Shown here piece after piece: positions 21,526-53,105 of a stretch of 64,000 nt of DNA. Source of the stretch: a virus (taxonomy: Duplodnaviria; Heunggongvirae; Uroviricota; Caudoviricetes); IMG/VR virus record IMGVR_UViG_3300021310_000004; one strand, written 5' to 3'. Numbering within the stretch: the stretch's first letter is position 1; the number at the start of each line of letters is the position of its first letter. The position numbers and the translations under genes are program-made. Below the pieces are notes generated by a model. The model saw nothing but the letters and a program-made list of their open reading frames with translations, ran no database searches and was not told the origin of the DNA.

Positions 21526-21581
21526 AATATTTATTCTCCTTTCTTATGTACCATTTTTATTTATCGATGTTAAATATGGTA

Positions 21582-22109
21582 CTATTTACGTCGGCGCCAA
21601 TTTTCATGTGCTTCTAAGAAATCCGGAGCAATCATATCGCGGTACTGATCCGTGTTCTCTCGAATCATGGTACCGGATACTTGAATCTTACTTCTATCCA
21701 ATAATACGAAGTTATGGTTCGGATAAACCTGCTGCAACTTCTCGATATAAGAGGCTTCGCCCGTGTACCAGGTATATTCTTTGGATTCGTCATTCGGATC
21801 TAGCCAAGCGTTACGAAAGAATTCTTTCCCCCAGATAGACCAAGCATCTACGGAAAATGTACCTGTTAATCCGATTTCATGATCGTCAACAATAGTAATA
21901 AAGACGTTCTTATCGTCATGATATCGTCTTAACATTAACTTCCATCGACCTTCAAACGGTAGGTACTCTTGTCCTCGGTCGCTATCATATCCGCATACAC
22001 CGATAACGATTCGATCATTCTCGTTCTTAGCTCTTTCAATCATTGATAAGTGGCCCTTGTGCAACGGGATAAAACACCCGAAGCACAGACCAATTCTTTC
22101 CTTACTCAT
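21582..22109 (-). CDS. nicotinamide/nicotinate-mononucleotide adenylyltransferase (NadM/NadR-type)
   Basis: GCFIPLHKGHL nucleotidyltransferase motif. Confidence 0.7.
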   Translation of the reverse strand: MSKERIGLCFGCFIPLHKGHLSMIERAKNENDRIVIGVCGYDSDRGQEYLPFEGRWKLMLRRYHDDKNVFITIVDDHEIGLTGTFSVDAWSIWGKEFFRNAWLDPNDESKEYTWYTGEASYIEKLQQVYPNHNFVLLDRSKIQVSGTMIRENTDQYRDMIAPDFLEAHENWRRRK

Positions 22110-22632
22110 TTACCACCTCAATATGACATGCCTTCATTGCCTGTAATGCCGTATTATGGCTCTCCTTGGTTACGCCGGCGCAACCTGCTGCATCTACGAT
22201 AATTCTCGTATTCGGTCTTGCTGCCTTGGCCAGCATGACATTGGAAATGACACAGATATCGGTACATACACCAACAAACTCGATAGACTCAAGTTCATAT
22301 GCGTAGTCAGCGAAGAAATCGCACAATTCCTTGGATCCGAATGTTTCCTTGTCAAACAAGTAATCTTCATCCACGTACGGCTTTAACTCATCAACGATCT
22401 CAAATCCTTCGCTTCCCTCAATACAATGCGGTACTGGAAGGTGCTGGCCTTCAATGGTATTCATGTAATCATCCTGGTGCATATCTCTTGTGAAGATAAT
22501 CAAATCTCCATCTTCAGTAGCCTGTTCCAGCTTCTTCTTAATGTACGGAATCACGGCAATCGCGTCCTCATTACGAAGCGCTCCGGTTGTGAAATCATTC
22601 TGCATATCAATTACTACTAACACTTTACTCAT
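22102..22632 (-). CDS. pncA: isochorismatase-family hydrolase, probable nicotinamidase
   Basis: VVIDMQNDF, catalytic Cys in VCTDICV; position within NAD salvage block. Confidence 0.65.
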   Translation of the reverse strand: MSKVLVVIDMQNDFTTGALRNEDAIAVIPYIKKKLEQATEDGDLIIFTRDMHQDDYMNTIEGQHLPVPHCIEGSEGFEIVDELKPYVDEDYLFDKETFGSKELCDFFADYAYELESIEFVGVCTDICVISNVMLAKAARPNTRIIVDAAGCAGVTKESHNTALQAMKACHIEVVNE

Positions 22633-22634
22633 CC

Positions 22635-23456
22635 CTAATTTCCTCCTACATATGTAAATTCAGTTGATTGTCTACCACTCGCCAAATCGGACTTTTTTAC
22701 GTTTCCGGTTTCGACGATTTTATGTTCTACGAGCCGCTTTAATGATGCCTTATAAATATCCTGGCCCATTACGGCCCGATATGTTGCTCGAAGTTCCGCC
22801 ATTGTAAATGTGGCCGGCACCAAACAGAACATGTTATCCGAATAATCAAATCCGGCTCGAAGCTTTTTCATCGCTTCAATTATTATTTCCACATGATCAA
22901 ACGCCAATTTCTCGTCCGATACTAATGTGGGAATGTAATTCTGGTACGTAAGTACGGAATTCTTAAACGACTTTTCCTTCAAACTGTACTTAATAGTGAC
23001 GTTCTTCTCATCGTTTCTTAAAATAAGCTCCGTATCTTTGAACACCAGATCAAACCATGCAGCATCTGCAGCATCGTCTTGACCAGTAACGTCTTCAAGA
23101 TTCGATACCAGTGCCATATAAGCGATACTCATTACCCACATACGAGGGTCACGTCCAGGTTTTGTGAATGTATAAATCTGATCCAAATAAGCTTTCTTTA
23201 AACCGGTTTCCTCATACAGCTCTCTTTGTGCCGCCTGAAACGCTGTTTCATTCTCTTCAATGAATCCGCCCGGTAGTGCCCAGCAATTCATATACGGGTG
23301 ATTTCCGCGTCTTATTAACAGGATTTTCAAATTGGTATAACCTGGAGCCATTCCAAGTACCAAGATATCTGTCGTTACGGATGGACGCTTATAATCGCCC
23401 GGATTATATTGCTCTAAAAACTCGGATTCTGTTAATCCATCTTTGTTACGAAGCAT
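22635..23456 (-). CDS. NUDIX hydrolase (ADP-ribose/NAD-metabolite pyrophosphatase-like)
   Basis: Nudix box GGFIEENETAFQAAQRELYEETG. Confidence 0.7.
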   Translation of the reverse strand: MLRNKDGLTESEFLEQYNPGDYKRPSVTTDILVLGMAPGYTNLKILLIRRGNHPYMNCWALPGGFIEENETAFQAAQRELYEETGLKKAYLDQIYTFTKPGRDPRMWVMSIAYMALVSNLEDVTGQDDAADAAWFDLVFKDTELILRNDEKNVTIKYSLKEKSFKNSVLTYQNYIPTLVSDEKLAFDHVEIIIEAMKKLRAGFDYSDNMFCLVPATFTMAELRATYRAVMGQDIYKASLKRLVEHKIVETGNVKKSDLASGRQSTEFTYVGGN

Positions 23457-24256: not shown

Positions 24257-25465
24257 TTATGCGGCCTTTTCAAGCTTTGCTCTTTCTTTCATTTCCTTTT
24301 GGAATGCACGATATCGCATTGTAAATGCATATGCCGGCCCGAAAACGAATCTCATTGCTTTGTACATCTGCGGCTCGCAAAGAGAAGCATAATTAAGCTC
24401 TGCATTGATATCCTGTCCAAATGGGCATCCGAGGCATCCAGTACGTGGCAGATAATCGTACAATTTTGAGTGGTTTATACCACAATACTTGTCGTATTCC
24501 TTCTTATCTGCATCCAAGTACCAAAATACCGGTCGATACTCATCGTACGGATGAGAAGATGCATCATTAAAGCAAGACTTATATGCGGCAGCTCTAACTC
24601 CGCCCTCACTTTTACGAACACCCTGGATAGATAACTGCGGGTTTAATGCCTCTGTTACTTCTTTGATAGTGTCTTTTTTAGATAATTTACAACACTTATT
24701 GGCAACTCGGAACGGAACCCCGCCTTCCTCAATTAAGAACTCTTTTAACCAAGTATTGTGGTTAATGTTGAACATGGAATCATCAGTTTCTGACTTCTTA
24801 TTGCACCACCATTCTAGGGCAGATACACATCCTTTGTACCATCCGGAACCAATCTTCTTGTACTTACCGTTGTCCCGAATGCCTAATTCGATTTCTTCGG
24901 CTGAACGCTCGTCTAGCTTATTGCAATACTTCTCGCAAAGAGCTTCCAGATCATCTGTATCATCGTATTCGAATCCATATTTTTGCAATCGCATTAAGAA
25001 TTCGGATACCTGTTTCGAGAGAAATGGAATTCCTTCTTTACGTACGGCAAGTGGAATTGGCGTTTTGGCCTTAAATCGGTGAATCTTAACCTGGTACTTA
25101 AGCTGCAGGTAGTCAATATGTTCCTTTGTGTACTTGGATTCTAGTCTGGTATCAATAAAGAAATAGAATACTTTGCGATCCGGATCACATCGTCTTAACA
25201 AATCAAGAACGATGTCAGAATCAGATCCTCCGGAAATGGAACAGCAAATTCGACCGGATTCATACAGTCTAGAGTTAATCTTGGACCAGCACTTGGATGC
25301 GTTTGTAATAACCGTATCGTTTGCCGGAAGCGTCTCAAAAACGTCCATCATTCCACGTTCTTTATTGTTGAGCAAATTGTGTAGTTCCCATTCTGCACGA
25401 GTAGGAACGTTAAAATTAAGATGTTTTTTAGCGTAATAGTAAGTAGCATTGAATGTACGAGCCAA
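24257..25465 (-). CDS. PP-loop ATP pyrophosphatase, PAPS-reductase family protein (long form)
   Basis: SISGGSDSD PP-loop; C-terminal CLGCPFG cysteines. Confidence 0.6.
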   Translation of the reverse strand: MARTFNATYYYAKKHLNFNVPTRAEWELHNLLNNKERGMMDVFETLPANDTVITNASKCWSKINSRLYESGRICCSISGGSDSDIVLDLLRRCDPDRKVFYFFIDTRLESKYTKEHIDYLQLKYQVKIHRFKAKTPIPLAVRKEGIPFLSKQVSEFLMRLQKYGFEYDDTDDLEALCEKYCNKLDERSAEEIELGIRDNGKYKKIGSGWYKGCVSALEWWCNKKSETDDSMFNINHNTWLKEFLIEEGGVPFRVANKCCKLSKKDTIKEVTEALNPQLSIQGVRKSEGGVRAAAYKSCFNDASSHPYDEYRPVFWYLDADKKEYDKYCGINHSKLYDYLPRTGCLGCPFGQDINAELNYASLCEPQMYKAMRFVFGPAYAFTMRYRAFQKEMKERAKLEKAA

Positions 25466-29714: not shown

Positions 29715-30467
29715 TTATGAAACACGTTCTTTTGTAGCTTCCCAAAACGCACCGAGATTTCGAATGTCGCCAAGGTTTCCAAAGTCTTTGTCCACCCGGA
29801 ATCGCTTCATTGGTCTCTCCAACTTGTTCTGCAATTCAATCAATCGATCCCAATACTCCGGCATATACAGCCAGATGTTATAGAGCTCTTTTTGATTCTT
29901 ATTACAGCAGCACCAGCAGGAGACTCTGTCCAGGATTCGATATAAATCGATTCCATTCTCCGTCCAATGAATACCATGATTCCAACAGTAGTTCAAAGCT
30001 TCAGATTCGATTACGCCCCATTCCGCTAGAGGAGCTCTTTTGTAATCCTCCATACGCTCCAAACGTTTCGGCTCGTCGGCTGCGATTCCTATGTATACGA
30101 TCGCATTCTGCTCCTTTGCATAACGGTCCAGTGCATTTAACTTATCTCTGGTACCCCAGCGGCATAAGCCTCCGCACCAACCGTATCCGTAATGGTCACC
30201 CTTTTGTTTCGAATGAACTGGTTTCTCAAGCATATCGTACATAAATGGACGTTCCGGTTTTAATTCCACATATTTGATGCCGTTTGCTTCCAGGATCGGA
30301 AGAATCTGGTCTCTTACATGATAAATCGCATTGAATTCCATTCCTGTATCGTAGAATACCACTTCGTCGAGCGGATAATTCTTTTCGATCAGCATAAGAA
30401 CCATTGCGACGGAATCTTTACCAAAACTTACGCTTGCTACATGTTTTCTTGTCTCATTTGTTGTCAT
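29715..30467 (-). CDS. PAPS-reductase family PP-loop protein (short form)
   Basis: SVSFGKDS PP-loop. Confidence 0.55.
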   Translation of the reverse strand: MTTNETRKHVASVSFGKDSVAMVLMLIEKNYPLDEVVFYDTGMEFNAIYHVRDQILPILEANGIKYVELKPERPFMYDMLEKPVHSKQKGDHYGYGWCGGLCRWGTRDKLNALDRYAKEQNAIVYIGIAADEPKRLERMEDYKRAPLAEWGVIESEALNYCWNHGIHWTENGIDLYRILDRVSCWCCCNKNQKELYNIWLYMPEYWDRLIELQNKLERPMKRFRVDKDFGNLGDIRNLGAFWEATKERVS

Positions 30468-30555
30468 AAACACCACTAACGAATCAATTCGTTCGTGGAT
30501 AGTAAGATCAGCTGGCGTTTTTTAGCATACTTTAATGCCGTAGCCAAGCGTGTGC

Positions 30556-34012: not shown

Positions 34013-34156
34013 CTTTGTTTTTATTCTCCTTTCTGCGATGGTAATAGTTTTGTTACGGATTAAATATGAGCAAGGTAAATGGCACAAAAAAAAAGAGGCC
34101 CGAAGGCCTCAATTCATGAATGGAGAACTTAACGTGCGGTCTGCACGCTAAGCAAG

Positions 34157-34229
34157 ACGCAGAGGTAGGAATCGAACCTACGACCTCCAGGTTATGAGCC
34201 TGGCGAGCTGCCGCTGCTCCACTCTGCAA
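34157..34229 (-). tRNA. tRNA-Met(CAT) family
   Basis: loop CTCATAA. Confidence 0.55.
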
Positions 34230-34323
34230 CATTGGCACCAAATCATTGGTACCAACATGAGAATGCCCGCAAATTCAATAACATTGCGGATTTGGCTAGA
34301 AGTATTTGCACTTTTATTGTGCA

Positions 34324-34395
34324 GTGACTCTTACGGGAATCGAACCCATGTTACCGCCGTGAAAGGACGATGTCTTAACCGCTTGACCAAAGAGC
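34324..34395 (-). tRNA. tRNA-like, Glu-type (TTC reading), anticodon stem imperfect
   Basis: loop region CTTTCAC; D-arm TGGTCAAGCGGTTAAGACA. Confidence 0.35.
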
Positions 34396-34535
34396 CAGAA
34401 GGCGGTACCACTGCCGCGTTAATACCGTAGCAGAGGTACCAATTTTGTTAAAAGTAAGTAGTGCATTATACCTATTTAGTCATTATTGCAATGCGTTGGG
34501 GGAGGTGAGAAAATTCGCACCGCAACAACAACGAA

Positions 34536-34621
34536 CGCAGTATCCAGGATTCGAACCTGGAAACCGATTGCTCGGATGGCGGATTTCGAATCCGCTGCTG
34601 TACCAATTGAGCCAATACTGC
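34536..34621 (-). tRNA. tRNA-Ser(CGA), type II
   Basis: perfect acceptor GCAGTAT/ATACTGC; loop TTCGAAA; long variable arm. Confidence 0.55.
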
Positions 34622-34805
34622 ATATGCAATCCATAAAAACACCCTTCACGTCCTAATACTTACGACGATCAATCGAATTCCGGATTGCGATACCGAGTAG
34701 CACCATTTGTTCGAACCGCAGGTGATATCGGTATCAATTTTTCTGAAAGTATTACGCAAAGCGGTTCTCGGAATAACGCACTTCGCATCTTTCTATTAGG
34801 ATGAA

Positions 34806-34900
34806 AACGCCGGCCATAGGACTTGAACCTATATCAGGGACCATATAGTGGTTTGATCTCCAAGAGCCAGCATAAGCAATAGACTTTCGCCTTACCACAC
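34806..34900 (-). ncRNA. tRNA-like fragment / structured element (T-arm ATAGGTTCAAGTCCTAT, no matching acceptor)
   Basis: T-loop consensus without complete cloverleaf. Confidence 0.2.
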
Positions 34901-35420
34901 TACAACTATCTTTATTCGGCCACCACTCGCAAAGGCTGAACCACACCAACGTCTCGGCATAGCTTCTTTACGGCCATCCGTAAACGGACAGCTACCATGG
35001 ACGGGAATCACATTACCCGCAACGTTCACCAGACATTCAGCTATACTGTAAAGATCTGTTATTATCCCTTGAATATCATATCTTCGGAAACTGACATATG
35101 GCTACTTGCTCTTATCCTCCGTGTTATAGGCTTGTTGCCAAACCATCAAATCAAACGGACTTGTTTTGGTTTTCCCTACTGTTTGCACGATGACCAGTCG
35201 CCGCATATAGGGTTCTTCTCTTCTCGAGCGTCTATTGCGTCCGCCACTAAGGACAAAGCTTTAAGTAAAGTTGTATCGCAGCACTGCAAACCTCTTTTCC
35301 GTTTTACCGGATTCGCGAATATTTGTTACCAAATACCACACTCCTAAACGATCAACGTAATCCGTAGTTCGTTCGAAGACTAAGGTCTGCATCCATGCAC
35401 AGAGTCAGTGTCATACACAT

Positions 35421-35508
35421 GGTTATTGCTAGTGGAATTATTAGGATTCGAACCTAGATGCTAAACATCCTTGTTTTGCACCACCCACCAATAGAGCGAT
35501 AATCCCAT
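35421..35508 (-). ncRNA. tRNA-like element with 9-bp/4-nt-loop hairpin in place of anticodon arm
   Basis: acceptor GGGATTA/TAATTCC, T-arm TTCGAATCC, internal TGCAAAACAaggaTGTTTAGCA. Confidence 0.3.
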
Positions 35509-35584
35509 ATGACTTTTGGTAAAGCAGATGTCGAACTGCTAAGGTAATTATGAAAAAAGAAACACGCATCAAACTGGATGCATA

Positions 35585-35617
35585 TATAAATATGATTCGA
35601 ATTTTTGGAAACTAAAA
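35585..35617 (-). promoter_or_regulatory. class B extended motif (TTTAGTTTCCAAAA-N9-CATATTTATA minus-sense)
   Basis: same architecture at 29645, 36746, 58346, 59776. Confidence 0.45.
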
Positions 35618-35618
35618 A

Positions 35619-36698
35619 CTAATCTTCTTCTACTTCGATTCCATGATCAGAGAGCTTCTTTTTCAGCTTATTAATTTCCTCCTGAAGCTTTCGATTCTCA
35701 ATACGAAGCTCATTGTTCTTGATTGTCTTTTCATCAAGAAGATCCTTCGCATTTGGCTTATCGTCCTTAAATACTTCTTCGTACTTCTGTTCGAACGAAG
35801 AAATACGCTTCTCAGAAACACCACTAGCTTCAAGCAGCAGCACAACCGTATTCTTATCCAGATCCTCATTCACGCTCTCACCAAGGCACTCACGTTCAGC
35901 AATATACTCACTAAGAGTTTCCTGGATATCTAACAACGTATCGTCATTGTCATCCTCAGTGGAAGGACCGGCCACAATCTGTTCAAAAGCTGTACGCTTC
36001 TGATCCGATGTATATCGACCCTCAACTCCGAGCCCATTTACCCAGAATTCTGTATGCGGTTCCTTTGCATTCTTCGTGTAGCACAAGATGCTATGAATAT
36101 CTGCGCTTCTATCATTGAATGCCGGGAATAAGAATCCAGTGTTTACGGCTCCAACAACCCAGTCGCGTTCTCTCGCACCAATATTATCCTTATCGGTTCT
36201 GTAACTAAGGCCAGGCTTAGATAAATCGACCGGACAAATCGCACACAAGATATGATCGTATACGACCTCGGATTCATCCAGTGCTAAATTATCGGTCGTC
36301 TTAGTTGGGACATCATATACGTCATGGAAAAGTACAATCAAATAATTGCCGACGTAATCAAAGGTCTCAATCACATGATCGTAAAACGCATCTAAAACAG
36401 CGTCGTCGCGAAGCCTAGACTCTCTCAAACTCATAAGAATCTTATGTTCCTCACCATTCAGCTCAGCCTCGGTTGTATACTCCAGGTTCATCAAGTTGTT
36501 GTTAATCTTTCCGGATAAGCACTTGTTCGCAATCTCAAGGAACTTAAAGAATTCCTCATCCTCCAGATTCAACATTGTGTTTCCAAACGTAGTAACCTTT
36601 TCTTTGCCGGCGTTAACATAGCAGCCACACACACGATCAATACTGCAGCTTTCCTTTTTTAACCGGCGCTTCAATTCCAGCACTTCTTTGTGATTCAT
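35619..36698 (-). CDS. DUF4317 family protein
   Basis: N-terminal MNHKEVLELKRRLKKESCSIDRVCGCYVN resembles DUF4317 N-termini; AGAAAGGAA RBS. Confidence 0.5.
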   Translation of the reverse strand: MNHKEVLELKRRLKKESCSIDRVCGCYVNAGKEKVTTFGNTMLNLEDEEFFKFLEIANKCLSGKINNNLMNLEYTTEAELNGEEHKILMSLRESRLRDDAVLDAFYDHVIETFDYVGNYLIVLFHDVYDVPTKTTDNLALDESEVVYDHILCAICPVDLSKPGLSYRTDKDNIGARERDWVVGAVNTGFLFPAFNDRSADIHSILCYTKNAKEPHTEFWVNGLGVEGRYTSDQKRTAFEQIVAGPSTEDDNDDTLLDIQETLSEYIAERECLGESVNEDLDKNTVVLLLEASGVSEKRISSFEQKYEEVFKDDKPNAKDLLDEKTIKNNELRIENRKLQEEINKLKKKLSDHGIEVEED

Positions 36699-36788
36699 AG
36701 AAATTCCTTTCTGCAATAAAAGTCCGGCTTGCTTGCCGGCATTAATAAATATGCTAATGACTTTCGGAAACTAAAAGTTTCCAAAGAG

Positions 36789-36860
36789 CTGGGCATACTG
36801 GATTCGAACCAGTGAATGCGGGAATCAAAATCCCGTGCCTTACCGCTTGGCGAATGCCCA
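36789..36860 (-). tRNA. tRNA-Gln(TTG)
   Basis: acceptor TGGGCAT/ATGCCCA; loop TTTTGAT; Gln-type D-arm. Confidence 0.65.
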
Positions 36861-36923
36861 ATACCGACTTTTGATAAGGCAGATGTCGAACTGCCTCATG
36901 TATATATTCATGAAAGGAGAAAG

Positions 36924-36996
36924 AGCTTACGATCAGACTCGAACTGACGACCTACTGATTACGAATCAGTTGCGCTACCAACTGCGCCACGTAAGC
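36924..36996 (-). tRNA. tRNA-Thr(CGT)
   Basis: loop TTCGTAA. Confidence 0.6.
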
Positions 36997-41981: not shown

Positions 41982-42074
41982 GAGAACGGATAAGGGAGGA
42001 ATCGAACCTCCGACCATCAGGTACTATTATTGACCTAAGTGCTGCCAACTTACATCTATCTTATCCATGTTGAC
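41982..42074 (-). ncRNA. tRNA-like element (perfect acceptor GGATAAG/CTTATCC, T-arm GGAGGTTCGATTCCTCC) with non-canonical anticodon arm; copy 1 of block B start
   Basis: read directly; duplicated at 44643-44735. Confidence 0.35.
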
Positions 42075-42301
42075 CGGTAGTGCCCAACGGTCGTTGCGTT
42101 TCGTGTGGTTGCAGCCCACTACTTTGCTTTCCCTCAGCCAGGCTCTGCAAAGCCCCAATAGGACGACACTATCACGTTACTTGCAATATGTACTCCCTAG
42201 AGCCGCCTTTTGGGACATGGTGGTGGGCTAATCCACATAACATATTACAAGCCTTTTAGGTGCTAACCTCGGACAACTTTTACGTCATATCCGTTTGACG
42301 A
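42075..42301 (-). ncRNA. conserved structured block B, copy 1 (about 230 nt); second copy 44736-44958
   Basis: about 90% identity between copies; no ORF conserved. Confidence 0.4.
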
Positions 42302-42425
42302 CGTGGAAACGAAGGGATTCGAACCCATACCGGACTTATTGTATCTATCTGTGCACCGATATTTTGATACAATAAGGAGCCTTCTTACAGATATTGTCTG
42401 CTGTTCTACCACTTGAACTACGTTT
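42302..42425 (-). ncRNA. tRNA-like element with giant extra arm (11-bp stem CTTATTGTATC/GATACAATAAG) between anticodon and T arms
   Basis: perfect acceptor GGAAACG/CGTTTCC, D-arm GTTC/GAAC, T-arm GGGTTCGAATCCC. Confidence 0.35.
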
Positions 42426-42583
42426 CCATATTCGCACCATACAGAGGCTCCTATTGGTAGCTTACTATGGCACTTTGCATTTGTTCTAATTTACGAACTA
42501 CTTCTTTAGCGCGTTTTTACGTAGCGATAATGCACGTACCGGCTACGGCTTAATCCTCGCATCATACGATATGCGATTGAGCG

Positions 42584-42656
42584 TGAATGATAGGAGGTTC
42601 GAACTCCTGGCCACCGGATTAAAAGTCCGGTGCTCTACCAACTGAGCTAATCATCC
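42584..42656 (-). tRNA. tRNA-Lys(TTT), second copy
   Basis: loop CTTTTAA. Confidence 0.6.
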
Positions 42657-42837
42657 ATATGTATCCTTGAAACTCCCTTTGGCCTCCGGCCCTGATCCAG
42701 AACTAAGGATACAATACACGGTGCTGATCAATGACGAATAGAATGATACAGGCTTGTTACCGTATATAGTTTTTCGTATTGGCTTACTGAAGCAAGATTC
42801 GTCTTTTATCCAGTGCTTCATGCAATACTAGGAAGAA

Positions 42838-42925
42838 TGGACTCAGTGGGATTCGGACCCACATTCGCGAGTGTTCGCTCTTTCATCTTAAACACTTAAG
42901 ATGGCTTTTCCTTTTAAGCTATGAA
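42838..42925 (-). ncRNA. tRNA-like element with 8-bp/4-nt-loop hairpin replacing anticodon arm
   Basis: T-arm GTGGGTCCGAATCCCAC; ATCTTAAGtgttTTAAGAT. Confidence 0.3.
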
Positions 42926-43464
42926 TCCATGTGCGGAACCTACCCACTTCTCCGCTGTGCGAATCATCAGGTCAACCAGGTCAACACTGTCCAACAACCA
43001 CCGCGCGGTATCCGCAGAACCAACAGTCCACGGGCCGCCTCGCACCCCATTTCAAATCGGCCACTAAAGCAGGACCTCTCTGTAAATAAACCCCGGCTTT
43101 ATCGAAATATCGAATGGTGCCGGAAACCATATATAGGCACGTTCACAATAAGGATTCGCCATGGCTCGATTCGTTACTAATTGCTTCAACAGCTGACGTC
43201 TACACCGATACAAAGCAACGTTTACACCTTCTCTCAACGAAGGCTAGAAGATCTACCACATATGAACAAAAGCCTAAATAGATGCCTTTGTCTCGAACAT
43301 ATCTCTTTAAAGCTACGTCTTAAAGAGAGCAGCCTATACCTGCCGACACCTACTGGTATGATACCTATCTATGCGTCCATCTCGTACGACGCAGGCATCA
43401 TACATACCACCTGATCTTATTTGTTTGTGCAGTGCTATACTGCTCGGAGTCCTGCTCCGCATAG

Positions 43465-43600
43465 CCTCTGACGGACTCGAACCGACAACCTTCTGTCCAA
43501 GGCATATTTTCCCGACTTAATGTACACTCCATCGGTACTTCTATCTTGCCCCTGGACTTGCTCCAGCCAATTAAGCTAAGAGGCTACAAGTGGGCCGGGT
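43465..43600 (-). ncRNA. tRNA-like element with about 52-nt insertion between anticodon-stem halves (mini-intron-like)
   Basis: acceptor GCCTCTT/CAGAGGC, D-arm, T-arm GTCGGTTCGAGTCCGTC; GTCCAGGGGC...GCCTTGGAC pairing. Confidence 0.3.
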
Positions 43601-43728
43601 AGGATTCGAACCTACGATACATACAGACTTTTACAGCTGATATTACATCTGCGCCCTGTGCCTGCTCGGGTACCGACCCATATCCGGATTTTTTGTACAG
43701 GTATCCGGGAACCTGCTGCATAATCTGC

Positions 43729-44274
43729 TTAGAAGTACTTCTTGTAAAGATCCTCAACAAACGGAACCTTGATCTCTTCGTATCTAAGTGCGCGTAATGC
43801 TGCCATTAAGAACATTAAGAACTCAAACCAGTTACATACGGTACGTAAGATAGAAAGCAAACTATTGATTGCGCCAAAGTATACGCTGATACCGATTGTG
43901 CTAAGTAAGCTTGAAATCACGCTAAAGGTGTCGCCTGGAAGTTCAAGCACCTTGTAGAATACGGAAAATACGATTGATAACATCAAAGACTTAATTGTGG
44001 CGCTTGTGATGTACTCGTTCTTCTCAATCAAAAGAGCATATCCTAAGATCAAGAGCAGCGGTACGTAACCACCAAAGTATCCGCAAATAAATGCGAAAGC
44101 TGCGATCAAACTAACACGAATTCCCTCTTTGGTTCTTGGAATTCCAGCACCATTGAAGTTAGAATCTTTACCGAAAGACTTCACTTCCTGCATTGTCTGA
44201 TTAATAGTGTCCTTTGCCGCGTTACCAACGCTGTTTGCCATGTTCTGCATGGTCTGCTGATTGTTTTCTGTCAT
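43729..44274 (-). CDS. membrane protein (hypothetical) embedded in the ncRNA island
   Basis: ORF with TM helices. Confidence 0.45.
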   Translation of the reverse strand: MTENNQQTMQNMANSVGNAAKDTINQTMQEVKSFGKDSNFNGAGIPRTKEGIRVSLIAAFAFICGYFGGYVPLLLILGYALLIEKNEYITSATIKSLMLSIVFSVFYKVLELPGDTFSVISSLLSTIGISVYFGAINSLLSILRTVCNWFEFLMFLMAALRALRYEEIKVPFVEDLYKKYF

Positions 44275-44304
44275 TTAATTACTCCTCTCTAGTTTATTAA
44301 TATT

Positions 44305-44527
44305 AAGACGTGCACAGTTTTATGCCGAACATGTCTATATGATATCCGACCGGGATTGCACCGGCACCCTTGGAGAAAAGTGTACTAAGCCAGTTCAACG
44401 ACGCTCGACTTTATACGACGGATATCGCACCAGTGTCTCCGGACCTCGTATGGTCCCACCAGCGGATTCACTTTAGCGGTAGTGAATCAAACGCTTTCAT
44501 CATTGCAGGTTTTTGTTCCCGCTAGAC
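44305..44527 (-). ncRNA. conserved structured block A, copy 2
   Basis: see copy 1. Confidence 0.4.
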
Positions 44528-44642
44528 ACAAATTCGGGCCTCACCTCAGCTTGTCCCTATAAAGCTCTCGTAGGGCTTTGTTCTTGCAAACAGTACTACA
44601 ATTTGCGTTTCCGCTCAGTACCGAGGTCGCAATGCCTCCTGG

Positions 44643-44985
44643 GCGAAAATGGATAAGGGAGGAATCGAACCTCCGACCATCAGGTACTATTATTGACCTA
44701 AGTGCTACCAACTTACATCTATCTTATCCATGTTGACCGAAAGTGCCCAACGGTCGTTGCGTTTCGTGTGGTTGCAGCCCACTACTTCGCTTTCCCTCAG
44801 CCAGGCTCTGCAAAGCCCCAATAGGACGACACTATCACGTTACTTGTAATACGTACTCCCTAGAGCCGCCTTTTGGGACATGGTGGTGGGCTAATCCACG
44901 TAACATATTACAAGCTTTTTAGGTGCTAACCTCGGACAACTTTTACGTCATATCCGTTTGACAGCGTGGAAAGAGGGGGATTCGA
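44643..44985 (-). ncRNA. block B copy 2 (tRNA-like element + about 225-nt conserved RNA)
   Basis: see copy 1. Confidence 0.4.
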
Positions 44986-46178: not shown

Positions 46179-46925
46179 AAAAACCTCCATTCTAGAATAG
46201 CTCTTAGGTCAGCCGGCCACACATTTTAACCGCAAAAATACTGTCGGTTGGTATTTGTTTCCAAAAACCGGAACGTGGGGAATTGAACCCCATTCCAAGG
46301 ACATGCAACCTTGAAAAGTACCGCTCGCCAGGCAGACGTACGGAGAAAGGAGTTATAATACCCGTACATCAACGAAACTATCACAAACATCGCGATTTCT
46401 CGCGAGTGGACTAGACGGGAGTCGAACCCGTGTCCGAAATAGTTACTAATTAAGAGTCTTAACGCTGTTGGGAGCGAAGAAAATCTCGCCTGATCCACCA
46501 CCTGTTTTCGTACCGCCAAAGCAGGAAAGATAATTGTGGTTTCGTCTTTTGAACCTTACAGAGTACCAAACTCCAATCTATCTGTAAGACAGGCGTTTTT
46601 CATGTCGAAGCTATCTAGTTATTAAACTAGGCAGCAACTGCCATAGGACGTACATTAGATCTTGCGTCTAATTTTAAGTGATCACCGTAACGTGGTATAT
46701 CAATTCCGAGCGAACTCTTAATATTCACTACCCCGTCGAAACCATTACTAGCCCAGAGGAGGACCGCCTATTACGGGTAAGTTCCAACAAAGGAACTTAG
46801 GTTGACTTTCACATTGTCAAAACAAAACCAAGCTCTTTCGAGCCAAATCATAGACGCAGGAAACGAACCTGCCGTCTCGAATCGATATATTCGGTGATAA
46901 TTCCGTTCCACATCGATTACAATAT

Positions 46926-46965
46926 TAATACGTATCATTGGACGTCATTTTGTGACAAAAAATCA
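46926..46965 (-). promoter_or_regulatory. class A bipartite motif
   Basis: TAATACGTATCATTGG-N7-TTTTGTGACAAAAAATC. Confidence 0.45.
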
Positions 46966-48246
46966 TAAATCCATATCCAGGCTTGGTTCTATCGCGTCAT
47001 ATTCTAGATCCGATTCAATTGAACTTCCAAGATCACTACCCACGGCCTGCTCATTTGATTCGGTCAATGCCGCCTCAATATTCGTGCTTTCGACCTCAAA
47101 CGAATGATCTGGCGCATTAAACTCTAACAGCCGGTCACAACCAACTTCTTTGGCCAGTTTCAAGCAGCCAAATACATCACGCGAATCCGTCGTTTTTATC
47201 ACGCACATATGACCTTGAGGATGAACAAAGAAATCTACATTCTCGGTCAATCCATATGATTCAAGCCGTTCTTTCGAGAAATCAATCTCCGGTACCAAAC
47301 TACGTAACTGAATCTCTTTCTTTTCTTGGTTCGTACACATCAATAGCTTTACGTTTGTACCACGAAATACAGACGTGTCCGCAATCTCGCTATCAAAGCT
47401 AAAAATTTCAACGTTCGGGCCATGAAGTCGTAACTCTTCCTTGATGTACGCATTAAGCATCATCTTCGTATGATTTTGCGTCTCTTTTTGCTGCTCGATA
47501 TTTGAAATTAGATTCTCGTTCTGGTTCGTTAATGCTGCTACCAATGGATTTAATTTTGTTGTTTCGTGTTCTTGCTCTAAGTACTGATTTGTGATAGCCT
47601 CAATGCCGTCTCTAGCTTTTGCGAACGACGCGTCATTTCCTTCTGGAATCGTAAAAGGCATCCATATTGGTACCATTGAACGTACGTAGTCAGACACAAT
47701 AGCCTCTCGATCTCCTGTCGGAAGATTACCATCTTTATCTGGAAGCAAAAATCTAGCCGGTACGGTTTCTTTGCCGGCCGTCGTATCCTTTACTTCGATT
47801 GGACGGAGTACAAAGTCACGAAACTGATTTTTAACATCCAACTTCGATTCACCATCACGCAACGTAAGTTTTCCAGACTCAATCCACGTATCTATAATCT
47901 TGTCGCCCCAGATTTCCCATACGAGCCCACACGCGGCCTTTTGATTTGGACCCGATTCATGCTCGTAGCATCTCGCACCTGGCTGATGATGGTCATATAA
48001 TCCGCCGCCAACATCAGCAACAACAATATTCGGATCCTTTAATGCAGCTAATATCGTGTTATCGTCTCTTGTTCTGAAAACCTTTATCTTAGGATTAATT
48101 TGCTTTAGTTCCCAGGCGGCCATAACATCATCTGCATGTGGAATTCCATCATGAACGAACATTTTGTTTGGAATCCGATTATCGTCCGGCGTCCAGTTTA
48201 CTTCTATAATTCCATACTTTTTGTTATACGTTTTGAGCACAGTCAT
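46963..48246 (-). CDS. MYG1/UPF0160-family metal-dependent hydrolase-like protein
   Basis: FVHDGIPHADDV and YDHHQ motifs typical of MYG1; class B motif 25 nt upstream. Confidence 0.45.
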   Translation of the reverse strand: MTVLKTYNKKYGIIEVNWTPDDNRIPNKMFVHDGIPHADDVMAAWELKQINPKIKVFRTRDDNTILAALKDPNIVVADVGGGLYDHHQPGARCYEHESGPNQKAACGLVWEIWGDKIIDTWIESGKLTLRDGESKLDVKNQFRDFVLRPIEVKDTTAGKETVPARFLLPDKDGNLPTGDREAIVSDYVRSMVPIWMPFTIPEGNDASFAKARDGIEAITNQYLEQEHETTKLNPLVAALTNQNENLISNIEQQKETQNHTKMMLNAYIKEELRLHGPNVEIFSFDSEIADTSVFRGTNVKLLMCTNQEKKEIQLRSLVPEIDFSKERLESYGLTENVDFFVHPQGHMCVIKTTDSRDVFGCLKLAKEVGCDRLLEFNAPDHSFEVESTNIEAALTESNEQAVGSDLGSSIESDLEYDAIEPSLDMDL

Positions 48247-48365
48247 CCCCTCTCTTTCTTTTACAATCCTTTTAAATATGGGGATGCTAAATGGAAACAA
48301 AAAAAAAGAACCTATGCATAACGCACAAGTTCTGTTAATATCTTTATTTTCGAAATTGAAAATAT

Positions 48366-48602
48366 AGCGATGACACCTTGTTAACTGATAGTCCTCTCGG
48401 ACTAGAGTTTGCTAGAGATTAAGCATCGAACAGCCTCGATATCCTTATCAACCGATAGTTCTTTCGGACGTTCTATTATTAAAGTATCGGATTATAGAGC
48501 CTCGATACCATTGCTAACCAGTAGTCCTATCGGACGCTCAAGTTTAATTCACTGGTTTGTTGTCCCCTCGATACCATTGCTAATCAGTGGTCCTATCGGA
48601 CG
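48366..48602 (-). CRISPR. CRISPR-like mini-array 1: four 37-nt repeats (48366, 48434, 48500, 48566; consensus CCTCGATACCATTGCTAACCAGTAGTCCTATCGGACG, first copy degenerate), spacers 31/29/29 nt
   Basis: conserved repeat ends CCTCGATA...CGGACG, unique fixed-length spacers, 66-bp period; orientation uncertain. Confidence 0.45.
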
Positions 48603-48708
48603 TCAAATATGGTGGCCTGTACGACAAGTTCTACTACATCTAGCATGTAGTCCTACCTTGTTTTCCAGGGCCGGTTCGGCTAAAAGCCAGGACGATCGTT
48701 CGCCCTAA
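48603..48708 (-). ncRNA. conserved 105-nt tail of array 1 (about 85% identical to 49536-49641)
   Basis: shared hairpins (GCCGGTTCGGC; ACTACATctagcATGTAGT). Confidence 0.4.
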
Positions 48709-48713
48709 TTATT

Positions 48714-49166
48714 TTATACGAAAATCGCATCTAACCAGCCGCCCTGATAAATGCGCGGGCCATTGAAAAACTTTTCACACTCGATCCGCCATCCATCAAA
48801 CTGGTATACGATCTTATTTTCAGTTTCATCATCTGGCTCGCCGAGTAACTCTTTTGCGATTTCACAACTTTTTTCAAATCGGCGATCCTGATATTCACGC
48901 TTCGGAATTCGCAGCATTTCATCCAATCCGTCAGAGTAAATGAAATGAGCCGCGCTTAACACATAATCTCCGTCCGGCAGTGGAACAAAATCACACTGAG
49001 CATATCCGGAATATCTTTTTTCATCTTTCAAAAAATAGGCATCAATAATAGGAACAGTAAGATAGGTTCCTTTATTTCTAACGATATGCCATTGTATGTC
49101 TTTCTTTTTTAGTTCACTTAAACGATCATTCGGTCGTAATTCATACCCACCTAAATTAAAAATCAT
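48714..49166 (-). CDS. hypothetical 150-aa protein bracketed by the two array+tail units
   Basis: TAGGAGAAGGA RBS before MIFNLGG. Confidence 0.45.
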   Translation of the reverse strand: MIFNLGGYELRPNDRLSELKKKDIQWHIVRNKGTYLTVPIIDAYFLKDEKRYSGYAQCDFVPLPDGDYVLSAAHFIYSDGLDEMLRIPKREYQDRRFEKSCEIAKELLGEPDDETENKIVYQFDGWRIECEKFFNGPRIYQGGWLDAIFV

Positions 49167-49301
49167 TCCTTCTCCTACACAAAATCTGTGACCCGTTCGT
49201 TTATTGCTACATTTTTTTGTCAAATTCTCGTGAACTGGTCCTCATCTTCACTTCGATATACCATTTGAACAATACCATTTTTTGAACACTTTTCGGAAAC
49301 T

Positions 49302-49535
49302 CTTCGACACCCTTGTTAACTGGTAGCCCCCTCGGACAATCAATCACGTTCTTTCACATTCAATGACCTCGATACCGTTGTTAATCAGTAGCTCTCTCAG
49401 AGCGCGGACTTGACCAGAAGTAAGTGGGTAAACCTCGATGCCCTTGTTAACCGGCAGCCTTCCCGGACCATAAGTACAAGTCGGTGAGCTGATGCAACCC
49501 TCGATACCCTTGTTAACCAGTAGTCCTCACGGACG
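49302..49535 (-). CRISPR. CRISPR-like mini-array 2: four 37-nt repeats (49302, 49367, 49433, 49499), spacers 28/29/29 nt
   Basis: same repeat family as array 1; spacers unrelated to each other. Confidence 0.45.
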
Positions 49536-49641
49536 TCAAATGGGGTGGCTCGTACGACAAGTTCTACAACATCTGGAATGCAGTCCTACCTTGTTTTCCG
49601 GAACCGGTTCGGCTAAAAGCCAGGACGATCGTTCGCCCTAA
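49536..49641 (-). ncRNA. conserved 105-nt tail of array 2, directly 3' of the TnpB-like gene
   Basis: see 48603-48708. Confidence 0.4.
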
Positions 49642-49840
49642 AAATATCTATGATTCGTTCTTGTGTGCCGTATTCTTTATTATGAGATGCAGCCACGCAC
49701 CAATCGTAACCATATCTCTCACTCGAACAGTACTTAGATGTTCAGACACGCCACCAAGAGAAATGGATCCAACCGGGCTAAATGCCATAAAGCCAATTAA
49801 TACAATCAAAACTATACTGATTATATCCGTTGCTTTGACA

Positions 49841-51268
49841 CTACGCTTCTTCATCGCTTTCAATCCTTCCTTCATAAAGCTTTGCTGCATAATACTGTCT
49901 GTATCCTGCTGAGTAGTCCATATCCTTAAGTTTAACCTTTTCTACGCCCTGGTAACCAGCAGCCTTTAATTTCGCATCCATAAGCGTTACCAAAATCGCT
50001 GGCGCATTGTGGCCGATTTCGCTACCTTTTTTGCGCTTCTTCTTCGGACGACCAGATTCTGTAACTTCGTCGCCTTCTTCAAACTGTTTTCTCATGGCCG
50101 CCCATTGGAACGGATAATCGTTTACGACCACACGGTCGCCATACGAAAGAATCTCGTTCGCTAAAATATGACGCTGAATCGAACGTTGCTCCGTTTCGAT
50201 ACGCTGCAGATTCGCCTTCTTATTACGAGCGTCTCTATAAGTCTTTGTTCGAACCCATGTTAAGCGTCGACGTTTGCCATTTTCCATGATTCCATGTTTA
50301 ATGGTTCCATCCTCGTTATAATTGTCCGGATTTGCACGTCTACTAGCTTCATCCATGACCCTTTGCTGATCCGCAATTTCATCCGCAAAATCCGGAATTT
50401 CTTCAGACAAATCTTTAAAGATTAATCCGTCTTTGGTACAAATTGTAACAGATGTTGTATCAATATACACTCCTACTCTTCCTGATCCAATTTGATTCTT
50501 AATCTCGCCTGTATTCTTATCGTACTTAATTGCAGGAACGCCTGTTACTGTTAACTGAACTAAGTATCTATAATTTCCTCGTACCCTCTTTCGAACGATA
50601 CGGACAATCTTAATATCTCGGTCCAACATTTCAATTAACCACAAGTCCTTACGATCAATCATTAACGGCATCTTGATTGTCTTCCCCTTATTGGTACCAA
50701 ATGCACACCATAAGTCTTCATTACCGTTACGGTGTAATACCGTCTTTCCGTCGGCCCCGATTAAGCGTAAACCGCTTTTGCCGGCCGAAGCAATAGAGCT
50801 CCAGGTGTCGAACTTCTTAAATGACACTTTCTCGCCATTTCGGAATAAACAAGTCTCAAATGCGGCCCACATCGGTTTCGAAATAGACGGGCCAACGGTT
50901 GCGGACGGAATATTCTGGCTGTAAACTTGATAATACCTTGTAGCGGTATTCGAAAAATCGAATTCAGACATACCATATTCACGGAGCAACTGCTTTTGCA
51001 TATCTGTGGCCTGTTTAAATTCTTCTGTTTTCTTGGCTTTATTCCGCTCTTTTTCGTCCTTAATCTTGTAGACTTCATTGATTACGGCCTTTGAATTCTG
51101 GTATCGAGTGTCCGCCAGCATCTTTTTGTACCGTTTGATCTCGAAGCCAAGCATGGCGTTATATACCTTACGGTACAATTCGAAGCGCTTAAACAAGATG
51201 TCTTCCTGCCACTTTTCAGTTTTTAAAGGAATCTCAATGACGGACATTGATTTAGGTTCTTTTGCCAT
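49841..51268 (-). CDS. TnpB/Cas12-family (OrfB_IS605-like) protein, predicted nuclease-dead
   Basis: N-terminal IEIPLKTEKWQEDILFKRFELYRKVYNAM matches TnpB N-terminal pattern; RuvC-I region GVYIDTTSVTICTKDG; RuvC-II position reads VVVND (E replaced by N); LMDAKLKAAGYQGVEKVKL matches TnpB YKA..G block; protein ends before zinc finger and RuvC-III. Confidence 0.55.
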   Translation of the reverse strand: MAKEPKSMSVIEIPLKTEKWQEDILFKRFELYRKVYNAMLGFEIKRYKKMLADTRYQNSKAVINEVYKIKDEKERNKAKKTEEFKQATDMQKQLLREYGMSEFDFSNTATRYYQVYSQNIPSATVGPSISKPMWAAFETCLFRNGEKVSFKKFDTWSSIASAGKSGLRLIGADGKTVLHRNGNEDLWCAFGTNKGKTIKMPLMIDRKDLWLIEMLDRDIKIVRIVRKRVRGNYRYLVQLTVTGVPAIKYDKNTGEIKNQIGSGRVGVYIDTTSVTICTKDGLIFKDLSEEIPDFADEIADQQRVMDEASRRANPDNYNEDGTIKHGIMENGKRRRLTWVRTKTYRDARNKKANLQRIETEQRSIQRHILANEILSYGDRVVVNDYPFQWAAMRKQFEEGDEVTESGRPKKKRKKGSEIGHNAPAILVTLMDAKLKAAGYQGVEKVKLKDMDYSAGYRQYYAAKLYEGRIESDEEA

Positions 51269-51756: not shown

Positions 51757-52026
51757 CTATACACGCCTTATTCCGTTGCCGTGCAATAATTTCCAAATCA
51801 TTATTGGCATCATGATCTTACGGGCTGATATGAGAACAATCTCATTCGGGTCTAGCCATCGAATGTGGCCAGCTAAAATTGTTCCGCTCTTAAATCTAGT
51901 CAATCTACCGTTTTCATTCCACTTCCATTTGCATTCATCAGATATAAAACTTGAGGCGAATCCGCCCTTAAATACTACTGTTATCTCGTATTTCTTGCGA
52001 TTTCCTCCAAAGATGCGGGGCCGCAT
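51757..52026 (-). CDS. hypothetical protein
   Basis: ORF coupled to ParM-like gene. Confidence 0.4.
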   Translation of the reverse strand: MRPRIFGGNRKKYEITVVFKGGFASSFISDECKWKWNENGRLTRFKSGTILAGHIRWLDPNEIVLISARKIMMPIMIWKLLHGNGIRRV

Positions 52027-53105
52027 TAAGCGGCACCCTCTTCTTCATTACCTTCATTGTCTTCGTCCTCTTCAGGCTCCTGAATCAGCTTAATTTTAAG
52101 CGTATCCGAACGGCCGCACATTAGAGCCAAAAATCCGATTGCATTAACCATATTCGGGTTCTCCGGCATAGCAGTATTCTCGCCGAAAGCTTCAATCAAA
52201 TCATCACCGATTAAGCTTACTCCGCCACCGATAATAACGAGCTGCATAACATCTAAGGACCAGTTCTTAGTACGAATCTCTTCGATCATGTCTCGAACGT
52301 AATTCTCTAAGTACCGCTTAATAATCTCTGCGGAACGAGCCTCTTTTTCCGGGTTTGGATTTCGGAATTTCAGCTTACGCGGGCCAGAAATTGCTTCGGC
52401 AGCCTTCCGCTTCGTAATCGTTGTCTGGAGTTCGTTCGATAATTCCTGAGCCAATCCAGATACAAGGAAATTTACGCCCTTTGTGGTGGTTCTTCTAGAT
52501 GTTGGATCGATATCTCCGCCACTGTAAATCGTCATATTCACATTCAAGTGGCCGATATCAAGAACACCAACTGCCTCGGAATAATCAATTCCGGGCGTAA
52601 AAATAGCTCCGATGGTCTCCGGATATACATAATGTTGCACGATCTTGAAGGTCTTCTCCATAATGTCACCGGATGCTGCACGATATGTAACGGTATGCTC
52701 TCCAAGTGGCAAGATGTAGTCACGATAATTATTACGTTCATCAACCACTAAATAAGAATCAACCGGGATTCCAACACTGGCTACTACTTCATCAGTGTCA
52801 TTCTCTGAACACTCCTTCGCAATCGCGAGCATGGTACATAACTTATGGATCAATGTCTTCTTGGAAGAATCAAGCTCTGCTTCGATAGACGCGCACTTAC
52901 CAACCTTATAGACGCCACCTTCGAATCCAACAATATAGGTACCATTACCAGGTTCATCATCATCGAACGTCGCGTTTTCCTCATATGCTGTTCTAAAAGC
53001 ATGCGTGAAATATGGAACCTCGTTACTGTTTTCCAAAAAAGCCGGATTTAAGACCGCGCTTTTGGTGAATGACTTACCAGAATCTACTGCGATATATCTC
53101 TTCAT
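52026..53105 (-). CDS. actin-like ATPase, ParM/StbA-like
   Basis: N-terminal IAVDSGKSFTK phosphate-1 motif, later DIGHLNVN and IIGGG motifs. Confidence 0.55.
   Translation of the reverse strand: MKRYIAVDSGKSFTKSAVLNPAFLENSNEVPYFTHAFRTAYEENATFDDDEPGNGTYIVGFEGGVYKVGKCASIEAELDSSKKTLIHKLCTMLAIAKECSENDTDEVVASVGIPVDSYLVVDERNNYRDYILPLGEHTVTYRAASGDIMEKTFKIVQHYVYPETIGAIFTPGIDYSEAVGVLDIGHLNVNMTIYSGGDIDPTSRRTTTKGVNFLVSGLAQELSNELQTTITKRKAAEAISGPRKLKFRNPNPEKEARSAEIIKRYLENYVRDMIEEIRTKNWSLDVMQLVIIGGGVSLIGDDLIEAFGENTAMPENPNMVNAIGFLALMCGRSDTLKIKLIQEPEEDEDNEGNEEEGAA

Follow-up and report, generated by a model that had tools for sequence, protein, structure and literature searches.

In a 64,000-nucleotide stretch of viral DNA (IMG/VR record IMGVR_UViG_3300021310_000004, class Caudoviricetes; hereafter the window), a gene encoding a TnpB/Cas12-like protein is followed on the minus strand by two modules, each composed of a structured RNA scaffold of 105 nucleotides (nt) and a short array of 37-nt repeats separated by unique spacers. 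Computational analysis gave a protein that has the TnpB/Cas12 fold and has lost the three catalytic residues (the triad) of its RuvC nuclease domain, modules that read from the minus strand, a covarying scaffold fused to the first repeat (R1) and a terminator after module 1. We think it probable on balance that the locus is a phage-borne, TnpB-derived (type V-like) system of RNA-guided DNA binding, in which a nuclease-dead effector is served by scaffold-fused transcripts carrying several guides. An earlier note on this DNA, made from the sequence alone, had offered a choice between an old, degenerate CRISPR array and a non-CRISPR guide array serving an adjacent dead TnpB-like protein. The second alternative fits the data, as homologues of the protein on many contigs have the same scaffold and array downstream, with a repeat period of about 66 nt. 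A merely old and degenerate array is unlikely given the selection acting on the scaffold, the strict spacer length and the presence of identical repeats in relatives. Whether the arrays are called CRISPR or not is a matter of definition; the locus would appear to work like a type V effector with an RNA resembling a trans-activating CRISPR RNA (tracrRNA).

The effector gene is as follows.

49841..51268, minus strand: 475-residue TnpB/Cas12-like effector that has lost the RuvC triad; the chosen start codon is the ATG of MAKEPKS, and the mechanical open reading frame (ORF) extends to a GTG at 51316

By sequence, the protein matched the TnpB N-terminal helix-turn-helix of Pfam only below threshold, PHROG 506 ('transposase') with an E-value of 7.6e-11 and, in the Protein Data Bank (PDB), only TnpB proteins marginally (E about 1). 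An AlphaFold2 model built with 118 homologues had a predicted local distance difference test score of 91.2 and a predicted template modelling score of 0.83. With this model Foldseek gave Cas12m2 as the best match (E 1.6e-11) and 50 matches at E<=1e-3; the top 50 listed were all TnpB, Cas12 or Fanzor structures, and identity to every one was just 8-15%. The WED-REC-RuvC (RNase H-like) fold of the TnpB/Cas12 superfamily was thus found in the model.

The wider family comprised 910 clusters (50% identity) at E<=1e-30. A single alignment split it into clade A (81 sequences, including the window protein) and clade B (34 sequences of about 500 residues), which differed as follows.

RuvC-I: clade B has GIDIGT with D268 invariant; clade A has Tyr268 in 75/81
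RuvC-II: clade B has E383 invariant; clade A has N383 in 81/81
RuvC-III: clade B has SQYNH...KKLSQRWN...VQRD[LM]YSA[YF]LI.N with the Asp invariant; clade A has E/K/Q/S at position 458
SQYNH...RWN segment (TNB-like, about 30 residues): present in clade B, deleted in clade A
C-terminal extension (about 50 residues): present in clade B, deleted in clade A
Zinc-finger cysteines: none in clade B, none in clade A

The window protein has Y268, N383 and a residue other than Asp at 458, and hence no D-E-D triad. The description of the neighbouring protein as a dead TnpB-like protein therefore agrees with both the predicted fold and the alignment, in which all three RuvC residues of the sister clade are absent. 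NAPAM was considered as the RuvC-III motif, a choice under which the whole family would be without the catalytic residue, and was rejected because the VQRD[LM]YSA motif of clade B holds an invariant Asp. The effector ORF is intact in at least 81 members of clade A, 108 relatives lie on viral contigs, and clade B proteins are encoded in multiple copies in some genomes. Loss of all three RuvC residues together with truncation is the pattern of TldR-type dead derivatives of TnpB (PMC10705468). The inactivation looks independent and seems to have taken place within a TnpB lineage that has no zinc finger. The TnpB clade RIIIr-4 of Altae-Tran et al. 2023 (PMC10691335) is without the C4 zinc finger, has His in place of the RuvC-III Asp and is enriched in viruses. 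The zinc finger is absent from the whole of the present family, but clade B keeps an Asp in RuvC-III.

The two modules were delimited as follows, in the order in which the minus strand would be transcribed. Repeats and spacers are numbered from the scaffold (R1 to R4, S1 to S3).

49536..49640, minus strand: module 2 scaffold, 105 nt, with stems P1 to P5 and the 5' strand of P6; omegaRNA/tracrRNA-like
49302..49535, minus strand: array 2, repeats and spacers; R1 49499-49535, R2 49433-49469, R3 49367-49403, R4 49302-49338; S1 49470-49498, S2 49404-49432, S3 49339-49366 (29, 29 and 28 nt)
49224..49301, minus strand: conserved distal segment 3' of array 2 R4, a degenerate-repeat remnant (TGTTCAAATGGTATATCGAAG) plus the lead-in to a 150-residue gene
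48603..48707, minus strand: module 1 scaffold, 105 nt, from covariance model and fold
48367..48602, minus strand: array 1, repeats and spacers; R1 48566-48602, R2 48500-48536, R3 48434-48470, R4 48367-48403; S1 48537-48565, S2 48471-48499, S3 48404-48433 (29, 29 and 30 nt)
48297..48333, minus strand: intrinsic terminator found by terminator scan, a 12-base-pair (bp) stem followed by a T8 run (TTTTTTTTGT), directly after array 1

The earlier note had put the identity of the two 105-nt blocks at about 85%. The duplicated segment, which takes in the last repeat and some 107 nt (48565-48708 versus 49498-49641), proved to be 88% identical, and its tail part alone agreed at 97 of 110 positions. Contrary to what had been thought, the block does not follow each array as a tail. 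It is a structured 5' scaffold that, on the minus strand, runs directly into the first repeat to give a unit of 142 nt. Covariance models were built from six such units and matched module 2 at 49499-49640 (minus strand, 146-147 bits) and module 1 at 48566-48707 (minus strand, 150-152 bits). There were no further scaffold copies in the window beyond the two modules, even with the filters of the covariance search switched off, and nothing in Rfam, its CRISPR-DR families included, matched 48200-49800 at the gathering score (best E-value 0.37).

Modelling of the block in this way had been proposed by the earlier note, and the stems were well supported. In an alignment of 35 modules, made with an explicit structure of P1 to P6 and the repeat hairpin, 84.9% of the stem cells were paired, versus 35-43% when the partners were slid by one to three columns, and changes on both sides were seen in 35 of the 37 pairs. 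Compensatory cells numbered 276 where 81 were expected, a count reached by none of 500 shuffles. By helix, pairing was 80-92% for P1 to P5, 71% for P6 and, in a fixed register, 66% for the repeat hairpin. As this alignment had been fitted to the structure model, P1 was recounted on a plain MAFFT alignment, where 89.3% of cells were paired and again 0/500 shuffles did as well; RNAalifold recovered P1 and P5 independently. The minus-strand folds of the two window copies share one architecture. Judged by these comparisons, the scaffold structure is under purifying selection. P6, in which the 3' end of the scaffold pairs with the 3' half of the repeat, is an 8-10-bp helix with covariation in the related loci L014, L007 and L122 (loci of relatives carry L numbers throughout), and this anti-repeat pairing is significant in L014 and L122. 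A Butyrivibrio fibrisolvens contig has two copies of a 141-nt unit made up of the element and one repeat; unrelated sequence follows each copy, which is how an omegaRNA or a single guide RNA is laid out. All 35 modules lie downstream of the effector gene on its own strand, where TnpB and Cas12 loci encode their guide RNA, although a guide role for them is putative.

We conclude that the RNA is read from the minus strand because the covariance-model matches, the base pairs of P1, the terminator, the fold energies and the position of a module in L250 all point that way. In the window and in the other loci the covariance models matched only the gene-sense strand. One P1 pair is G·U in 30 of the 35 modules and would become A·C if read on the opposite strand, and P2 is commonly capped by a GAAA loop. 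The two copies fold with energies of -44.3 and -40.5 kcal/mol on the minus strand and -41.3 and -35.7 kcal/mol on the plus strand. Besides that of module 1 (48333-48307, minus strand), similar terminators follow the final repeat of L247 and that of the seventh L248 module. The scaffold of L250 starts 2 nt past a transfer-messenger RNA (tmRNA) gene on the same strand (tmRNA 3926-4293); 3' processing of that tmRNA could set the 5' end of the scaffold. By eye, TATAAT-like boxes stand just 5' of most modules. In the window, a weak -10-like TAGATA box (49645-49650) lies upstream of the module 2 scaffold, and a -10-like TATAAA box (48713-48718), which overlaps the stop codon of the 150-residue gene, lies upstream of that of module 1.

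The repeats form two groups of four 37-nt copies with start-to-start distances of 65-67 nt. Seven of the repeat starts previously given were correct and the first required a shift from 48366 to 48367; spacers described as 28-31 nt at an exact 66-bp period are 28-30 nt at the slightly variable period just given. A degenerate repeat pattern had three matches in the window versus 0.00 expected from shuffles. The six internal spacers were as alike as shuffled sequences (mean global score 10.1 versus 10.2, standard deviation 1.8). The spacers are therefore mutually unrelated, as had been claimed, and the arrays are not a simple tandem duplication. Thus two direct-repeat arrays with unique spacers stand beside the effector gene, as in type V loci. 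Each repeat consists of a short hairpin on its 5' side and a 3' half that is conserved (...ACAAGGGTATCGAGG) and directly adjoins the spacer. The hairpin stem varies by lineage (GTCC/GGAC, GCCC/GGGT, GTATG/CATAC, CCCT/AGGG and TTTTGGGG/CCCCAAAA). Terminal repeats have often kept the hairpin and lost the 3' half, and R4 of array 1 (48367-48403) is degenerate in its 3' part. Identical repeats are present in the relatives L003, L007 and L122.

The 91 repeat units of 30 modules have 37-nt repeats and 28-30-nt spacers. A conservative detector found arrays after 23 of 126 triad-intact and 10 of 31 triad-less relatives, and arrays reach up to 14 repeats. The number of modules per locus ranges from one to seven, with two in the window and two or three in many loci. 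L248 has seven scaffold and array modules on one strand within 11 kb (2847-10800) of a 62.6-kb contig, in which some of the genes near the modules run on the opposite strand. In the syntenic locus L247, the effector of which is 85% identical, the scaffolds, their flanks and the distal array end are kept, including a stretch after the last repeat that is homologous to 49224..49301, but the scaffold-proximal repeats and spacers all differ from those of the window. Hence the set of guides is replaced quickly, and the exchange appears to proceed from the side of the scaffold.

Given these results, we propose that each module would be transcribed into one precursor consisting of scaffold, R1, S1, R2, S2 and so on. 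Scaffold plus R1 would act as an omegaRNA-like natural single guide RNA presenting S1, and the later repeat-spacer units might be processed and paired with the scaffold, in trans or by refolding, via the short P6 helix. The ribonucleoprotein would bind complementary double-stranded DNA beside a target-adjacent or protospacer-adjacent motif (TAM/PAM) and block transcription or replication without cutting. Binding without cutting is established for TldR, Cas12m, Cas12c and Cas12k (PMC10705468, PMC11013384, PMC12669027), as is interference through binding alone for type V effectors with an inactivated RuvC and for derivatives of TnpB (PMC12669027, PMC10691335, PMC10705468). The complete turnover of spacers between close relatives suggests variable targets, such as competing mobile elements or host loci, rather than one fixed promoter. 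Much more tentatively, the locus might be a living intermediate on the way from a TnpB omegaRNA to a CRISPR array, in which an unsplit scaffold remains fused to R1, units are added 3' without Cas1-Cas2 and the module is copied around a huge phage genome, giving multiplexed, rapidly exchangeable guides with which a dead effector would silence host or rival DNA in the course of infection.

Several observations weigh against the proposal of a nuclease-dead, guide-directed DNA-binding system. No protospacer was found in the window, in 260 related loci, among INPHARED phages or PLSDB plasmids, or by exact 22-mers in IMG/VR, so that the comparison of spacers with phages and plasmids that the earlier note had suggested gave no target. 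In the IMG/VR search, made with three window spacers and three spacers of relatives, the former had no match and the latter matched only themselves; 68 pooled spacers of relatives had no match in INPHARED. Rumen-type phages and their hosts are expected to be poorly represented in these collections. The window repeats are quite diverged within each array, sharing 19-35 of 37 positions pairwise, a wider range than the 3-8 differences reported before, and they are not the near-identical repeats expected of type V arrays built by Cas1-Cas2 acquisition. Thermodynamic support from single sequences is weak, with z scores of -2.3 (module 1) and -0.2. In the window lineage the complementarity of scaffold and repeat is only 4-6 bp and no better than in shuffles, which makes the loading of guides 2 and 3 the weakest step of the mechanism. 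A strict sigma-70 scan gave no minus-strand promoter and did not call the boxes mentioned above. Finally, D270 (69/81) and D384 (75/81) are newly conserved in clade A beside the lost catalytic residues.

The last of these observations raises the question of whether the effector has kept RNA-guided nuclease activity through a RuvC site rearranged around D270 and D384, its arrays guiding the cleavage of competitor or host DNA as in phage CasPhi or TranC. The two residues are conserved only in the clade without D268 and E383, two residues and one residue from the lost sites, and Altae-Tran et al. 2023 (PMC10691335) argued that conserved rearrangements often keep activity. However, the third catalytic Asp is gone and nothing conserved has taken its place (E/K/Q/S at 458), deletions have removed the TNB-equivalent segment and the C-terminal extension, position 270 is N or T in 11 members of the clade, several members are without both of the new acidic residues, and the residue pattern fits TldR-type decay (PMC10705468). 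We consider an active nuclease unlikely. A dead effector and its repeat RNAs might instead serve as decoys or dominant negatives against clade B systems of the host, an anti-defence device that would need no targeting. Relatives that look active and have arrays are common in the genomes of Bacillota that might be hosts, phage-encoded inactivated effectors have been proposed as anti-CRISPRs (PMC12669027), and the failure to find a spacer target would be in keeping with such a role. Nevertheless, a decoy needs neither unique spacers of strictly 28-30 nt nor their wholesale replacement between relatives, the window repeats and scaffold differ strongly from clade B repeats such as GTTGCAAT..., and the dead clade is also found on bacterial contigs, for example in Butyrivibrio fibrisolvens beside a Mob_Pre mobilisation gene. 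On these grounds a decoy seems to us quite improbable.

We also strongly doubt that the arrays are the decaying remains, now without function, of an earlier CRISPR or omegaRNA locus. The divergence of the window repeats, the degenerate terminal repeats and the failure to find adaptation genes or spacer matches would be expected of a relic. The last includes a scan of 24 of the 30 window ORFs of at least 200 residues, none of which gave a Cas1-like Pfam match; small ORFs, among them any encoding Cas2 or Cas4, were outside that scan. Against decay stand the compensatory changes that maintain the scaffold stems, the constant spacer length across 91 units, the intact effector ORF throughout clade A, the multiplication of modules (up to seven in 11 kb) and the identical repeats in the arrays of some relatives. 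A plus-strand CRISPR array with a transcript ending in a conserved 105-nt trailer, the orientation assumed in the earlier note, would place a short hairpin at the repeat 3' end beside the spacer, as in Cas12a CRISPR RNAs (crRNAs), and by eye the hairpin of the repeat at 48434-48470 is kept by a G·U pair valid only on the plus strand. A plus-strand RNA had first been inferred from such repeat wobbles, and was discarded since the covariance-model matches, the P1 G·U pair and GAAA loops (valid only on the minus strand), the terminator and the more stable minus-strand folds all oppose it, as do the Butyrivibrio units, in which scaffold plus repeat is followed by unique sequence in the omegaRNA manner. 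We regard this orientation as very improbable. Hardly credible is the idea that the repeats are DNA iterons rather than RNA genes, for instance the centromere of a ParM/ALP-like partition protein encoded 2.4 kb away (52026-53105), although a gene of this type also neighbours the L001 and L003 loci. The covariation is of the RNA type and includes G·U pairs, modules accompany the TnpB-like gene in the ALP-free loci L005, L248 and L250, and unique 29-nt spacers would have no role in such a model.

The kind of system proposed here, RNA-guided DNA binding by a dead TnpB relative, is already known. About 50 inferred transitions from TnpB to type V effectors, repeated inactivation of RuvC and duplication of omegaRNAs have been documented (PMC10691335, PMC12669027). 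TldR (Wiegand et al., PMC10705468; bioRxiv 10.64898/2026.09.22.753285) resembles the window effector in being TnpB-derived, in having lost RuvC residues and a part of the C-terminus, and in having a guide RNA that is encoded right after the gene and on its strand; prophages carry some of the TldRs, and the expected action is likewise steric blocking without cleavage. In contrast, TldR uses one guide RNA with a conserved 9-16-nt guide directed at a specific host promoter and is linked to a partner gene, whereas the present loci have arrays of 28-30-nt spacers, two to seven modules per genome, full spacer turnover and variable neighbours. A relation of TldR to this family is not established at the sequence level.

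Cas12m (type V-M) and other RuvC-inactivated variants (V-C, V-K and the predicted V-O and V-P; PMC12669027, PMC11013384) share with the window locus a compact effector, a short array without adaptation genes and, as proposed here for the latter, interference by DNA binding rather than cleavage. Although Cas12m2 is the best Foldseek match, identity is only 12-15%, the present locus has a 105-nt scaffold fused to the first repeat and no triad, and multiple dispersed modules were not described for Cas12m in the literature consulted here. Cas12m is not known to need a tracr-like RNA, and it processes its own crRNA through an intact RuvC-type site. TranC, as outlined by way of bioRxiv 10.64898/2026.03.27.714800 (PDB 9jfo-9jfq), has an effector the size of TnpB, a tracr-like RNA that descends from transposon right-end RNA, and arrays of 3-20 repeats of 32-38 nt, in Clostridia-type bacteria and phages. 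The triad-intact sister clade of the present family fits this outline. According to the same outline TranCs are active nucleases whose right-end RNA is split into tracrRNA and crRNA, whereas here scaffold and first repeat are contiguous and the nuclease is dead. The effector is 12% identical to LaTranC, and the architecture is compatible with a tracr-like RNA plus crRNAs from the array.

The dCas12f-sigmaE system of RNA-guided transcription (PMC13472631) also uses a naturally dead Cas12f/TnpB-type protein, and in its lineage the tracrRNA and a half-repeat were re-fused into an omegaRNA that was then duplicated for several sites (PMC13472631). Duplication of the whole scaffold, seen there and in the omegaRNA arrays of Altae-Tran et al. 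2023 (PMC10691335), has its counterpart in the two to seven modules found here. However, there is no sigma factor beside the effector gene in L001-L006 and L247-L251, and regular 66-nt repeat-spacer units follow each scaffold, not just duplicated whole omegaRNAs. What we did not find described in the literature consulted is the combination suggested by these sequences: a lineage without triad or zinc finger that keeps regular arrays, a scaffold contiguous with R1, and several independently terminated modules among phage genes. Accessions of family members occurred in none of the papers searched. If confirmed, the locus would represent a huge phage equipped with a natural counterpart of CRISPR interference, composed of a dead TnpB/Cas12 relative and several independently transcribed multi-guide modules. 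It would also be an independent case of RuvC inactivation in which arrays were kept and multiplied rather than lost, as well as a concrete example of how arrays might grow at an omegaRNA's 3' end, with implications for the origin of type V systems from transposons. In addition, a 475-residue protein and a natural single guide of about 140 nt would constitute a compact DNA-binding platform.

Other members of the family differ in their surroundings. Distant relatives of about 29-33% identity occur in three to five copies per record or genome (L056-L058, from IMGVR_UViG_638275818_000001, and L201, L204, L206, L207 and L212), and their identical or nearly identical tblastn E-values suggest that part of the family is still mobile. 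Most of the multi-copy distant loci scanned had no periodicity of 60-72 nt; L058 had 33 shared 8-mers at a period of about 66. On the 174-kb contig of L001 the guide array is followed, about 260 nt downstream, by an ordinary IS200/IS605 pair (8166-9701) of a Y1 TnpA and a canonical TnpB, the latter with a TNB domain like that of Cas12f1. The Butyrivibrio fibrisolvens genome contig mentioned above (L005) carries its dead-clade gene between a gene for a 1048-residue DUF8426 protein with a faint Mrr_cat match and a Mob_Pre relaxase gene (2792-5938 and 8077-9180), a neighbourhood that suggests a mobilisable element.

Two small genes accompany the modules in the window.

49648..49890, minus strand: 80-residue ORF, predicted transmembrane, overlapping the effector gene at its 3' end; neither Pfam nor PHROG gave a match
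48714..49166, minus strand: 150-residue orphan gene between the modules; no Pfam or PHROG match

The minus-strand gene order given in the earlier note (TnpB-like gene, block, array 2, 150-residue gene, block, array 1, MYG1-like gene) is correct apart from the transmembrane ORF, which comes after the TnpB-like gene and before the first block. An equivalent ORF of 70-80 residues was called in L001, L247 and L250, and one of 44 residues in L248. The 150-residue gene, for which only two homologue clusters were found, had been taken as cargo of the arrays. We rejected it as cargo or partner, as a homologue of 79% identity is found on other phage contigs in surroundings that leave no room for modules on either side. 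The terminator of array 1 is directly followed by the MYG1-family gene (46963-48300, minus strand; Pfam MYG1_exonuc, E 2.2e-14), and a tmRNA gene (46404-46754, minus strand; tag peptide ARSNVRPMAVAA) is one gene downstream of array 1. Just upstream of the effector gene lies the gene for the ParM/ALP-type actin-like partition protein (52026-53105, minus strand). Such a gene is likewise near the effector in L001 (4867-5970) and L003 (4370-5485) and absent from more distant loci; the adjacency probably reflects an order of genes that was inherited, not a link in function.

From its gene content the window looks like part of a huge phage, and a DNA search of INPHARED found no phage matching it. 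The tRNA genes, the tmRNA and a ROOL RNA are all on the minus strand. About 35 tRNA genes form three clusters (10673-15675, 34156-36996 and 41986-44738, minus strand), and the full-length ROOL RNA (34861-35444; Rfam RF03087, 251 bits) lies amid tRNA genes. ARAGORN gave one tRNA (42837-42929) a four-base anticodon, gtgt, and no amino-acid assignment, and an Rfam tRNA match at 42304-42427 is unusually long at 124 nt. An NAD-salvage cluster (19536-23456, minus strand) encodes an NAD synthase, a nicotinate phosphoribosyltransferase and a NUDIX protein whose winged helix is of the NrtR type, and resembles the NAD-replenishing counter-defence pathways of phages. Two proteins with PAPS-reductase domains (24257-25465 and 29715-30476, minus strand) might serve in DNA or tRNA modification, and two adjacent genes (7535-9343, minus strand) encode SPFH/Band 7 (flotillin-like) proteins.

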